DNA of 1,762 bases from Escherichia coli. Its GTDB lineage: Bacteria > Pseudomonadota > Gammaproteobacteria > Enterobacterales > Enterobacteriaceae. Below, piece by piece: positions 1-1,762 of this stretch. The stretch lies in NCBI RefSeq assembly GCF_003334385.1, contig NZ_QOWN01000110.1; one strand, 5' to 3'. Made by a program: the position numbers and the translations under genes. The notes beneath the pieces are model-generated. The model saw nothing but the letters and a program-made list of their open reading frames with translations, did not search any database and was not told where the DNA came from. Within the stretch, counting starts at the first letter, position 1. The number at the start of each line of letters is the position of its first letter.

Positions 1-546
1 GCCCTGGGGATAACGGCAAAACAGATTGCTGATGCCACAGGAAAGAAAAACATGGTGTCGCACTGGTTCAGTGCCAGCCAGTGGCAGCTACCGGACGAAA
101 GCGATTATCTGAAATTACAGGCGCTGTTTGCCCGGGTGGCAGAAGATAAGCATCAGCGCGGAGAACTGGAAAAGCCACATCACCAACTGGTCAGCACATA
201 CAGTGAACTGAACCGGCAGTATACGGAACTGCAGAGTGAATATAAGCATCTGCGGCGGTATTTTGGTGTGACGGTGCAGGTGCCGTACACCGATGTGTGG
301 ACGCATAAACCGGTGCAGTACTATCCCGGGAAACATCCGTGCGAAAAACCGGCAGAAATGCTGCAGCAGATAATCAGCGCGAGCAGTCGTCCGGGTGACC
401 TGGTTGCAGATTTCTTCATGGGGTCAGGTTCGACAGTCAAAGCAGCGATAGCGCTGGGACGTCGTGCAACTGGCGTTGAGCTGGAGACTGAGCGTTTTGA
501 GCAGACGGTCAGGGAAGTTCAGAATTTAGTCAGTCAGAACGGATGA
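1..546 (+). CDS. DNA methyltransferase, beta-class N6-adenine/N4-cytosine family (N6_N4_Mtase-like), C-terminal portion; 5' end probably lies upstream of the window
   Basis: Frame 1 is open from base 1 to the TGA at 544-546, so the ATG at 52 may be an internal Met. The translation carries HPCEKPAEMLQQIISASSRPGDLVADFFMGSGSTVKAAIALGRRATGVELETERFEQ, which fits the HPxxKP ... GD-V-D-F-GSG(S/T)T ... LGR ... G-E C-terminal motif block (AdoMet-binding motif I, FxGxG type) of beta-class amino-methyltransferases. No DPPY motif IV is present in the 182 codons visible, consistent with it lying upstream. GC about 53% by hand count. Confidence 0.8.
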   Translation, partial: ALGITAKQIADATGKKNMVSHWFSASQWQLPDESDYLKLQALFARVAEDKHQRGELEKPHHQLVSTYSELNRQYTELQSEYKHLRRYFGVTVQVPYTDVWTHKPVQYYPGKHPCEKPAEMLQQIISASSRPGDLVADFFMGSGSTVKAAIALGRRATGVELETERFEQTVREVQNLVSQNG

Positions 547-548
547 TA

Positions 549-577
549 TTGCAGAATTAGTTACGTACCGTTATTAT
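549..577 (+). promoter_or_regulatory. Putative sigma70-type promoter for the tRNA pair
   Basis: TATTAT (-10-like, 572-577) lies 9 nt upstream of the tRNA 5' end at 587. A weak -35-like TTGCAG (549-554) sits 17 bp upstream of it. Motif match by eye only. Confidence 0.3.
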
Positions 578-586
578 CCTATGCCC

Positions 587-662
587 GGCCCTTTAGCTCA
601 GTGGTGAGAGCGAGCGACTCATAATCGCCAGGTCGCTGGTTCAAATCCAGCAAGGGCCACCA
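587..662 (+). tRNA. ileZ: tRNA-Ile2 (anticodon CAU, presumably lysidine-modified, decoding AUA); ileX/ileZ-like
   Basis: Cloverleaf folded by hand: acceptor GGCCCTT (587-593) / AAGGGCC (652-658); D-stem GCTC/GAGC; anticodon stem 613-617 / 625-629 with loop CTCATAA (anticodon CAT at 621-623); T-stem GCTGG/CCAGC with loop TTCAAAT; discriminator A; encoded CCA at 660-662. The sequence is very close to E. coli ileX as I recall it. The symbol ileZ is the name used for phage-borne copies; Ile2 versus Met identity rests on that similarity, not on the anticodon alone. Confidence 0.85.
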
Positions 663-671
663 TATCACATA

Positions 672-748
672 CCGCCATTAGCTCATCGGGATAGAGCGCC
701 AGCCTTCGAAGCTGGCTGCGCGGGGTTCGAGTCCTCGATGGCGGTCCA
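672..748 (+). tRNA. tRNA-Arg, anticodon read as UCG (decoding CGA, possibly CGG)
   Basis: Cloverleaf folded by hand: acceptor CCGCCAT (672-678) / ATGGCGG (738-744), all 7 bp Watson-Crick; D-stem GCTC/GAGC with a 9-nt D-loop; anticodon stem CCAGC (699-703) / GCTGG (711-715), loop CTTCGAA with U33 and A37, anticodon TCG at 706-708; 5-nt variable loop; T-stem CGGGG/CCTCG with loop TTCGAGT; discriminator T; encoded CCA at 746-748. Unusual C1-G72 first pair. Confidence 0.8.
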
Positions 749-804
749 TTATCTGCATTATGCGTTGTTGGTTCTGATGAGTGAATCATTGTCTTTTGAG
801 CAAC

Positions 805-826
805 AGGCTATCATATAAGATAGCCT
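805..826 (+). other. Perfect 8-bp hairpin AGGCTATC-ATATAA-GATAGCCT downstream of the tRNA pair; possible weak terminator or RNA processing element
   Basis: Inverted repeat 805-812 / 819-826 with a 6-nt loop. The following sequence is only moderately T-rich (CAGACTTCCTTGTTTATTCTC), so a terminator role is uncertain. Confidence 0.2.
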
Positions 827-904
827 CAGACTTCCTTGTTTATTCTCGCCGGATGCTTCGTAGATATTTGCAGGCATCTGTATGCAGGGGTATTATTGCG
901 GCAT

Positions 905-1026
905 ATATCATCCGGAAAAATAAAAACTACATGCTGATCCGGAGATGATAGTTACAAGTCCTCCCGGATCCCGCATATTTACTATATTTTATAGATAATT
1001 GTTCTTGTTAATATGGAGATGGATAA
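905..1026 (+). promoter_or_regulatory. AT-rich upstream region of the lipoprotein gene with TCCGGA-type repeats, candidate promoter/operator, and Shine-Dalgarno
   Basis: TCCGGA at 911-916 and 939-944. An imperfect inverted repeat GATCCGGAG (937-945) / CTCCCGGATC (961-970) surrounds a 15-nt spacer. Several -10-like hexamers follow (TATATT 984-989, GATAAT 994-999), but no convincing -35/-10 pair at canonical spacing was found. GGAG at 1015-1018 is 8 nt upstream of the ATG at 1027. Confidence 0.3.
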
Positions 1027-1455
1027 ATGTATTGCCGTGCTGTACCAGTTCTTGTTTTGATATTAGCCAGTCTGACAACTGGCTGCACAAAAGATGTATC
1101 GACAAATAATTATGATGCTTCTCTGTATCACTCAGATAAATTAATAAAGTCGCAAAATTTGAGCTCATCGGAACGTACCCCTGATGCCAGTGAAGAAATC
1201 AGGCAGTATGCCATTCAGGTCAGGAAAGCCATAGAAGAACAGTTAAAGGATGCGAGTAAGTATTCAGGAAAAGAGTGTTCACTGAGAATGTATATGGCCC
1301 CGAATGGTCTTCTGCTACAGGTTAAAAGAGAAAGCGGTGATCCCGATTTATGTCGTGAAGCGATGAATGCAGTAAAGAATGCTGATATACCATCACCACC
1401 GTCTTCAGGAGTATATAAAGCATTTAGAAATGGCGTGCTGGATTTTAAACTCTGA
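1027..1455 (+). CDS. Predicted lipoprotein with a TolA C-terminal domain (TolA domain III)-like fold; moron-type accessory gene
   Basis: 142-aa ORF with an SD-like GGAG 8 nt upstream. The N-terminus MYCRAVPVLVLILASLTTGC has a basic n-region, a hydrophobic core and a lipobox-like TTGC, giving Cys20 as the predicted lipidated residue; Thr at +2 implies no inner-membrane retention signal. Residues ~55-142 (EEIRQYAIQVRKAIEEQLKDASKYSGKECSLRMYMAPNGLLLQVKRESGDPDLCREAMNAVKNADIPSPPSSGVYKAFRNGVLDFKL) align by eye with the E. coli TolA C-terminus as I remember it (YAGQIKSAIE..DASSYAGKTCTLR..APDGMLL.IKPEGGDPALC..A..AAK.AKIPKPPS..VY.VFKN..LDFK), roughly half identical, including both cysteines at the same 25-residue spacing. 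GC about 41% by hand count. Confidence 0.85.
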   Translation: MYCRAVPVLVLILASLTTGCTKDVSTNNYDASLYHSDKLIKSQNLSSSERTPDASEEIRQYAIQVRKAIEEQLKDASKYSGKECSLRMYMAPNGLLLQVKRESGDPDLCREAMNAVKNADIPSPPSSGVYKAFRNGVLDFKL

Positions 1456-1490
1456 CAGGGGGAGAAGATTTTCTCCTGTCCTGATGATTT
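1454..1490 (+). terminator. Candidate intrinsic terminator immediately after the lipoprotein gene
   Basis: Hairpin overlapping the stop codon: GACA (1454-1457) and GGAGAA (1461-1466) pair with TTCTCC (1471-1476) and TGTC (1477-1480), with a GGG bulge and a GATT loop. It is followed by CCTGATGATTTTGGGG; the T-run is short and 6 nt from the stem, so this is weak. Confidence 0.35.
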
Positions 1491-1548
1491 TGGGGCGCTG
1501 GAAAGATATTGTGCTGTGAAGTGTTAAATTCCTCACAATTCAGTAAGT

Positions 1549-1564
1549 TGACAGTTGCCTGTCA
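1549..1564. repeat. Perfect palindrome TGACAG-TTGC-CTGTCA (6-4-6), overlapping a consensus -35-like TTGACA (1548-1553)
   Basis: Direct reading: 1549-1554 TGACAG is the reverse complement of 1559-1564 CTGTCA. The same TGACAG / CTGTC arms form the outer stem of the hairpin at 1453-1480. No matching -10 hexamer was found at 16-18 bp spacing from the TTGACA. Confidence 0.5.
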
Positions 1565-1602
1565 GACTGAGCATTTGTTAAAAAAATTTCGCATGGTGAA
1601 TC

Positions 1603-1618
1603 CCCCTGTGCGGAGGGG
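1603..1618 (+). repeat. GC-rich hairpin motif copy 1 (CCCCTGTGCGGAGGGG)
   Basis: 14 of 16 positions identical to copy 2 at 1743-1758. Forms an imperfect stem CCCCT/AGGGG. Confidence 0.45.
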
Positions 1619-1740
1619 CGACTGGTGAACGGTATGATCTCTTTGATGATCGTAAGCGAGAATATGCGGGTTTAGTGTCACCGGGCTGAACTCACCGGGA
1701 GGCACCCGGCACCATGCAATGGCACATAGCGCCACTCTCC

Positions 1741-1762
1741 AGCCCCTCTCCGGAGGGGCTTT
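1741..1762 (+). terminator. GC-rich hairpin motif copy 2 (AGCCCCTC-TCCG-GAGGGGCT), followed by TTT at the window edge; candidate intrinsic terminator
   Basis: Perfect 8-bp GC-rich stem with a 4-nt loop, followed by T residues that run off the window. A full T-tract cannot be confirmed. Confidence 0.4.

Follow-up and report, generated by a model that had tools for sequence, protein, structure and literature searches.

A TolA-domain-III lipoprotein gene in the stx2 slot of a lambdoid prophage of Escherichia coli, and its candidate role as a decoy for Tol-dependent colicins and phages

Why would a lambdoid prophage of Escherichia coli carry a copy of the C-terminal domain of TolA, placed behind a lipoprotein signal? 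The question is raised by an E. coli DNA stretch of 1,762 nt (the window; RefSeq assembly GCF_003334385.1, contig NZ_QOWN01000110.1), to which lambdoid prophages in many E. coli chromosomes are 100% identical. The gene concerned is an open reading frame (ORF) at 1027..1455 (+), stop codon included, which starts with ATG and encodes a protein of 142 aa. An earlier reading of the window's letters (the original prediction) had taken this protein for a lipoprotein bearing a homologue of TolA domain III (TolAIII) and had proposed it as a decoy in the Tol system. The domain, fold and lipoprotein architecture in that interpretation were borne out by Pfam, PDB and AlphaFold 2 (AF2), and the lipobox was found to be kept down to 26% identity.

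Domain III was assigned to aa 54-142 (1186..1452 (+)) using Pfam, PDB, AF2 and Foldseek. The Pfam profile TolA_C (PF06519) matched aa 52-140 with an independent E-value (i-E) of 8.2e-23, the match covering model positions 7-96 of 96. TolAIII chains in the PDB (1S62, 3QDP, 2X9A and 1TOL) were matched at E=1.6e-25 to 8e-25, with aa 54-141 aligned ungapped to TolA residues 333-420. Identity to E. coli TolA domain III was 45/89 (50.6%), and to the TolA of the prophage's own host strain 52%. C84 and C109 were aligned with the disulfide cysteines of TolA, C363 and C388, at identical spacing. In an AF2 model made with 62 family members, residues 54-142 formed an alpha-beta-beta-alpha-alpha-beta fold with a predicted local distance difference test score (pLDDT) >90; residues 1-53 were of low confidence (pLDDT 49-59 for residues 1-50) and had no secondary structure. 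Foldseek placed this model on E. coli TolAIII crystal structures with a root mean square deviation (rmsd) of 0.6 Å for 2x9a_B (TMt 0.95) and 0.7 Å for 1tol. The original prediction had aligned the domain and both cysteines by eye and had named a profile search and a structural superposition as checks; with both of these, homology to TolA domain III far above chance is confirmed.

The domain is preceded by a signal peptide (aa 1-20, 1027..1086 (+)) with the lipobox LTTG/C, identified by a pattern check, and by a tether of ~33 residues (aa 21-53, 1087..1185 (+)) that is predicted to be disordered (AF2). A Shine-Dalgarno sequence, GGAG, was read at 1015..1018 (+), 8 nt ahead of the ATG. R4 makes the n-region of the N-terminus (MYCRAVPVLVLILASLTTG followed by C20) positive, a hydrophobic core is present, and the whole passes a lipobox pattern of the PROSITE PS51257 type, as expected from the lipoprotein-type signal claimed earlier for the 142-aa ORF. 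The lipobox Cys and a +2 residue other than Asp were kept in three E. coli alleles (66-73% identical), in the tandem paralogue, which is 24% identical, and in viral homologues with identities of 46, 39 and 26%. Under the Lol sorting rule, lipoproteins whose +2 residue is other than Asp go to the outer membrane. Since the +2 residue here is Thr, not Asp, outer-membrane sorting is predicted, and we infer lipidation at Cys20 followed by Lol sorting to the outer membrane.

RefSeq names the ORF 'tolA: cell envelope integrity protein TolA'. The name was given because domain III by itself lifts the NCBIfam model TIGR02794 above its cut-off (75.9 bits against 59.45), with profile positions 266-361 of 362 matched only; PRK09510 scored 103 bits, short of its 213-bit cut-off. 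BLASTP against the 421-aa TolA of the host aligned aa 57-141 with 336-420 only, and no similarity to TolA residues 1-335 was found. Domain I, the transmembrane helix coupled to TolQR, is absent, and the N-terminus is instead a predicted cleavable lipoprotein signal. Domain II, the helical, periplasm-spanning part of ~250 residues, is absent too, and only 33 residues lead from Cys20 to the domain. A canonical ybgC-tolQ-tolR-tolA(421 aa)-tolB-pal-cpoB operon was found intact elsewhere in the host genome, so the prophage gene is an extra copy. An orthologue of TolA was ruled out, as domains I and II are missing and the locus is a lambdoid prophage and not the tol-pal operon. The RefSeq name is an over-annotation.

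That the gene might still be a true TolA, or a functionless, decaying fragment of a captured tolA, was judged very improbable. Such a reading draws on the TIGR02794 score, from which the PGAP name follows, and on the allele of strain H14, which is annotated as a pseudogene. It is opposed by the match to only the last ~90 positions of the TolA model, by the PRK09510 score, by the lack of a membrane anchor and of domain II beside a host tolA in its own tol-pal operon, by a ratio of nonsynonymous to synonymous substitution rates (dN/dS) of ~0.25, and by an architecture kept down to 26% identity. A functionless gene would show a dN/dS close to 1 or be disrupted often, and neither was observed. Pseudogene status was rejected for the H14 allele: the flag reads 'missing N-terminus', yet all 142 aa are encoded without a break, lipobox included. 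Affected RefSeq records include NZ_CP053284.1 2156641-2157069 and NZ_CP010177.1 3853203-3853463. In hundreds of RefSeq genomes the label 'tolA' is borne a second time, by a gene whose product is no TolA, and intact copies are in some cases called pseudogenes.

The ligand-binding strands of TolAIII were then located in the prophage protein. In TolA, beta3 is the beta-augmentation site for TolB, for the N1 domain of filamentous-phage g3p (g3p-N1) and for colicin N (ColN); D418 and K420 make backbone hydrogen bonds to g3p-N1, and with either substitution, D418P or K420P, ColN, g3p and TolB no longer bind and the tol phenotype is complete (PMC4339652). The edge strand concerned, LDFK at TolA 417-420, is identical at aa 138-141 (1438..1449 (+)). 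The protein ends one residue past LDFK, as TolA does, and because its C-terminus lies at TolA's end point the beta3 edge strand is free. The family consensus C-terminus is LDFKP/L. Colicin A binds by strand addition at TolA 375-380, LLDIKP (PMC3365938), the counterpart of which is the similar LLQVKR at aa 96-101 (1312..1329 (+)). Reported affinities of TolAIII are ~1 µM for ColN and g3p, and ~40 µM (PMC4339652) or 4 µM (PMC2707214) for TolB. An identical LDFK, a C-terminus at the same position and a similar colicin A strand are consistent with a decoy. A fusion of g3p-N1, linker and domain, modelled after PDB 1TOL with a 28-row alignment, gave pLDDT <50 for N1 and an rmsd of 11 Å from 1tol, and is neutral on binding.

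The gene is carried in an AT-rich cargo cassette of 763 bp (770..1532 (+)), which blastn placed where Stx2a phages have argO, stx2A and stx2B. Window 1-769 was 94% identical to positions 5001-5769 of the Stx2a phage L005, the match running to the start of argO, and window 1533-1762 matched L005 7216-7450, starting 46 nt past stx2B (stx2A and stx2B lie at 5930-7170 in this phage). Because the flanks match L005 on either side, 770-1532 is the exact site of argO, stx2A and stx2B. The guanine plus cytosine (GC) content was 40.8% in the ORF, 38.1% in the spacer upstream of it and 53.1% in the methyltransferase part of the window. Two marks of a moron are seen in the cassette: flanks conserved in Stx2a phages and a deviant GC content (38-41% against 53%). 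The original prediction had described the gene as AT-rich, as lying downstream of phage-type tRNA genes and as occupying the classic moron position. The GC values agree with the first statement, two tRNA genes upstream (587-662 and 672-748) with the second, and for the third the cassette was found to be exchanged exactly for argO, stx2A and stx2B, with the gene between Q and holin.

Upstream of the cassette, the window holds the 3' part of a DNA methyltransferase gene (1..546 (+); ORF 52-546; RefSeq annotation DNA-methyltransferase), which belongs to the backbone shared with Stx phages. It is followed by a tRNA gene with a CAT anticodon at 587..662 (+) (ARAGORN; Rfam tRNA 72.5 bits), which ARAGORN calls 'Met' and which RefSeq and Stx-phage records call tRNA-Ile (ileZ); it is listed here as ileZ-type tRNA-Ile. 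An argN-type tRNA-Arg (TCG) gene follows at 672..748 (+) (ARAGORN, Rfam). argO, the third tRNA gene of Stx2a phages, is gone from the window together with stx, and an AT-rich spacer of 278 nt separates the tRNA genes from the ORF. At the start of the cassette, just past the tRNA genes, a near-perfect inverted repeat (AGGCTATCATA and TAAGATAGCCT, window 805-826) forms an 8-bp hairpin; the fold of window 795-850, which holds this hairpin, had a z-score (z) of -2.8.

The small RNA STnc100 (RF02076) was found downstream of the cassette at 1562-1762 (+), cut by the window end (Rfam 164.8 bits against a gathering score of 47). Its 3' end is a stable hairpin at 1741-1760 (-17.3 kcal/mol, z=-3.3), which is the nearest strong hairpin to the ORF. 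The element is part of the backbone common with Stx2a phages, where it lies downstream of stx2B. Four or five tandem-like copies were seen in another prophage (L004 8464-9430), and in phage mEp460 (L002 4662-4837) the element stands upstream of the TolA-like gene and not downstream. STnc100 flanks the cargo slot and may mark a recombination boundary.

In strain SCU-104 the prophage (L001) is integrated beside ompW. Its genes run from the Q antiterminator through a small ORF, the DNA methyltransferase, tRNA-Ile(CAT) and tRNA-Arg(TCG) to the TolAIII lipoprotein ORF, and then through a nanS-p-type SASA esterase, DUF1378, DUF826, holin, lysozyme and an Rz-type lysis protein to terminase and head and tail genes. 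The holin gene follows 3.6 kb downstream of the lipoprotein gene, and the Rz-type 'lysis protein' has a separate gene downstream of lysozyme (26189-26656). The outer-membrane spanin subunit (o-subunit, Rz1-type) was considered as an identity for the ORF and rejected on three counts: the separate Rz-type gene, the distance of 3.6 kb to holin, and a mature part that is a folded TolAIII of 89 residues.

A DNA search of 5,426 complete E. coli genomes found the ORF in 897, at >=95% identity in 122 of them and as a ~80%-identity allele in 764. Phage mEp460 has this latter allele, unchanged, as its 'TolA protein'. In mEp460 and Rac-like prophages a second TolA_C lipoprotein follows the first in tandem after 150 nt (L002 5580-5975, L003 7526-7921), and then comes holin, ~250 nt after the end of the mEp460-type pair. 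This second paralogue has 131 aa, the lipobox VAG/C and 24% identity, matches PDB TolAIII at E=5e-9 and ends in FDMRG, against LDFKP in the first; it was present in all mEp460-type viral contigs long enough to show it. Both paralogues belong to phrog_5772 of PHROGs, labelled 'unknown function'. A third allele (72% identical) has an AraC-type regulator on one side and nanS-p on the other. Regulators of the AraC family (HTH_18) were frequent alternative neighbours in the Q-to-holin cargo region (L006-L008 4826-5539; L023-L030 at ~+1.1 kb); one group of alleles has such a regulator upstream of the TolA-like gene, another has it downstream.

Beyond E. coli genomes, an IMG/VR scan gave 65 viral contigs, in all but two of which the gene is co-oriented between Q and holin. 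The two (L078 and L079, 26 and 25% identity) are a near-identical pair with the gene downstream of lysozyme. Distant homologues L076 (46%), L077 (39%) and L078 (26%, standing for the pair) were inspected, and all three start with a lipobox. Exhaustive HMMER searching of 1.84 billion cluster representatives returned 303 matches; among the best 150 of these, 87 were <=170 aa long, and about 50 of the 87 had a lipobox. A Kosakonia copy in an icd-adjacent island with DinI and a Serratia copy beside a holin-lysozyme remnant are probably prophage remnants. A metagenomic copy flanked by genes for a ClC channel and an OpuA-type transporter was ambiguous. In a distance (neighbour-joining) analysis of 137 C-terminal domains, the window protein was 0.476 from E. 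coli TolA and 0.48 from the Serratia lipoprotein homologue, about equally distant from both, and the tree favours neither as the source of the domain. Among the three E. coli alleles dN/dS was 0.28-0.36 overall, 0.24-0.29 in the domain and 0.32-0.57 in the tether, which has the highest dN within the mature protein. Since these ratios are well under 1, the gene is under purifying selection.

What selection might be maintaining was approached from the architecture. We give about an even chance to the reading that the stand-alone TolAIII copy is a decoy or competitor for TolAIII ligands and that the benefit is protection of the host. After Sec export, the protein would be lipidated at Cys20 and passed by Lol to the outer membrane. 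A disulfide-bonded TolAIII module would then stand on a flexible tether of ~33 residues in the periplasmic zone where TolA meets TolB-Pal, the same zone into which colicin translocation domains and filamentous-phage g3p would first emerge. As domains I and II are lacking, the module could be neither coupled to TolQR nor energised, so that competition would be the only action open to it, and ligands bound to it would be held unproductively, as by a competitor or dominant-negative decoy. The first to be intercepted would be parasites that bind with high affinity, at about 1 µM: g3p-N1, colicin N and T-domains of the colicin A type. The N-terminus of TolB, a weaker physiological ligand, would be titrated only at high dose; given affinities of ~1 µM (ColN, g3p) against 4-40 µM (TolB), invaders should be caught at doses that spare TolB. 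At high dose, inhibition of Tol-Pal with leakiness and vesiculation would be a side effect or a second use. The selected benefit would most likely be host tolerance of Tol-dependent colicins and phages. Over-production of periplasmic TolAIII is said to have made cells tolerant to colicins and Ff phage, and leaky, in work by Levengood-Freyermuth, Click and Webster in 1993.

Several observations weigh against this decoy reading. No PADLOC family was matched at E<=0.01. A promoter scan of the window returned 2 sites against 3.0 expected by chance from shuffles; a single 9/12 match was seen at 867-896, in a total count not above that of the shuffles. No terminator was called in the window, and the hairpin directly past the stop codon was unremarkable (z=-1.1). 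Because no promoter rises above chance, lysogenic expression, on which protection of the host would depend, is unsupported for the window allele. A TolA Tyr implicated in TolB binding ('Y352' in PMC2707214, Y353 in the alignment numbering) is replaced by Lys in this protein and by Gly or Arg in other alleles. Tol-dependent phages, being specific for F or conjugative pili, may be a weak selective force, and a decoy that blocks colicins may be costly through the tol phenotype. Alignment of the upstream regions of the three alleles showed a common 5' leader of ~50 nt only and no shared promoter. The mEp460 allele speaks in favour of the reading: a sigma-70 10/12 match (TTGAGC-18-TATAAT, L002 4942-4971) lies 30 nt upstream of its gene, and a terminator (L002 6101-6118) follows the second paralogue; this putative promoter together with the terminator is a moron layout. 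As to timing, a gene in the Q-dependent late transcript at the stx slot should be strongly produced after induction, and expression of the window allele in a repressed lysogen seems plausible.

The position of the gene also allows a reading in which the molecular act is identical and both target and purpose differ. The protein would be made late, after induction, from pR' through Q antitermination, and would titrate the TolB N-terminus of the host's own system. TolA would then fail to strip TolB from Pal, Pal would stay off peptidoglycan, and the outer membrane would loosen, bleb or stop constricting. The phage in lytic growth would be the beneficiary, by an aid to lysis and release, by a bigger burst through a block of division, or by more vesicles. 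Rz1 is a precedent for an outer-membrane lipoprotein made late. We regard such sabotage of Tol-Pal as unlikely, though not negligible. The gene is co-oriented in the late operon between Q and holin, with the mEp460-type pair ending shortly before holin; the window allele has no promoter of its own above chance; and LDFK, the strand that TolB binds, is unchanged from TolA. Stx2a phages keep stx2 in this slot, and expression of stx2 is coupled to induction (PMC8065619). However, this is an accessory gene, missing from many lambdoid phages that share the lysis cassette and exchanged for toxin genes in Stx phages. The lysis set of the prophage (holin, lysozyme and spanins) is complete as it stands, and tethering by Pal is irrelevant once endolysin has destroyed the peptidoglycan. 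The affinity of TolB for TolAIII is low (about 40 µM according to PMC4339652 and 4 µM according to PMC2707214), and in mEp460 a promoter-like site and a terminator go with the allele itself. The sequence alone does not choose between a host-protective decoy and late sabotage.

A further reading, to which we give slightly less credence still, keeps the scaffold and changes the ligand. Here the domain would have been re-purposed for a partner that TolAIII does not bind, such as a phage-encoded periplasmic protein, an outer-membrane receptor of competing phages or another envelope component, and its likeness to TolA would be that of a mere beta-augmentation scaffold. Identity to TolA of just 51% with differing surface positions would suit this, as would the many and diverse short TolA_C proteins (87 of the best 150 matches at <=170 aa, about 50 with a lipobox) and a domain tree that gives no clear origin. 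The FDMRG end of the second paralogue, in place of LDFKP, suggests another specificity inside one phage. Yet no other part of the surface is as well conserved as the two known binding strands, nothing is added past the point where TolA ends, and LDFKP/L still closes the family consensus.

The host-protective decoy reading gains from a second lipoprotein that this prophage encodes. Its gene, at L001 27249-27575 downstream of the lysis genes, specifies 108 aa (MKRNLPLIILLSSLVMG followed by C, lipobox VMG/C), of which residues 24-104 match the TonB C-terminal domain (TonB-CTD; PDB 8RD6 and 1U07, E=4e-16). This gene was found in 1,616 of the 5,426 complete E. coli genomes. It is labelled 'TonB family protein' in RefSeq and, as phrog_1267, 'Rz-like spanin' in PHROGs, a label that its sequence does not obviously support. 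Howard and colleagues reportedly found in 2001 that the periplasmic TonB C-terminal domain is dominant-negative. Lipoproteins with the docking domains of both energy transducers in one prophage would strengthen the idea of a general strategy. In its widest form this idea holds that temperate coliphages routinely carry unpowered, outer-membrane-tethered TolAIII and TonB-CTD decoys against group A and B colicins and Tol- and Ton-dependent phages; we put it forward tentatively, as possible rather than probable.

The family is already catalogued, as a Pfam domain, as PHROG 5772 and under NCBI names, and is functionally blank there. The original prediction was aware of no characterised example; none was found here either, PHROG 5772 being of 'unknown function' and a full-text search of open-access papers and bioRxiv turning up none that treats a TolAIII or TonB-CTD lipoprotein of a prophage. 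Should the decoy reading hold, a very common E. coli prophage gene tunes sensitivity to colicins and filamentous phages, or outer-membrane stability and vesiculation, from the Shiga toxin slot, and mimicry of a hub domain is added to the mechanisms of prophage-mediated exclusion and tolerance. There would be a bearing on colicin- and phage-based therapeutics and on strain competition in the gut, and Tol-Pal research would gain a natural dominant-negative probe. If the two-transducer reading is true, a natural immunity class built on mimicry of the periplasmic import hub is present in ~1/6 (TolA-type) to ~1/3 (TonB-type) of E. coli genomes under the names 'TolA' and 'TonB family protein'.

Compared with E. 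coli TolA domain III, the prophage domain has the same fold, disulfide, C-terminal end point and LDFK at 51% ungapped identity. In contrast to TolA, which is anchored in the inner membrane, the prophage protein is stand-alone and AT-rich in its gene, is encoded by a prophage and has a predicted outer-membrane lipid anchor. The TonB-CTD lipoprotein is of a common design (lipobox, short tether and the beta-augmentation C-terminal domain of an energy transducer) and differs in its homology, to TonB instead of TolA, and in its place after the lysis genes instead of in the Q-holin slot. Laboratory periplasmic TolAIII constructs, of the kind reportedly studied in 1993, likewise set an isolated TolAIII beside wild-type TolA, whereas the prophage version is natural, phage-borne, 49% diverged and predicted to be lipid-tethered.

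Among phage lipoproteins, T5 Llp and the Cor proteins of phi80, N15 and mEp phages block FhuA, and lambda Bor is a lipoprotein moron. T5 Llp is the subject of a preprint (bioRxiv 10.64898/2026.03.26.714494). All of these are small lipoproteins that phages encode in cargo slots and that change the susceptibility of the envelope from the inner leaflet of the outer membrane; the TolAIII lipoprotein, also cargo of a temperate phage and predicted to share this location, would be of the same kind. It is unrelated to them in sequence, and Llp and Cor bind and plug a receptor, whereas the TolAIII lipoprotein would mimic a periplasmic hub; if the decoy reading is true, this hub mimicry in place of receptor plugging is the new twist among phage envelope lipoproteins that change susceptibility. 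Exclusion by Ff g3p offers the same pairing of partners. Expression of g3p, in which g3p occupies TolA, is said to have given the mirror-image Tol phenotype in work by Boeke, Model and Zinder in 1982. The pair of g3p-N1 and beta3 of TolAIII would serve to block Tol-dependent entry in both cases, as a proposal in that of the prophage; but Ff saturates the TolA of the host with ligand, whereas the prophage would add a surplus of unpowered TolAIII.

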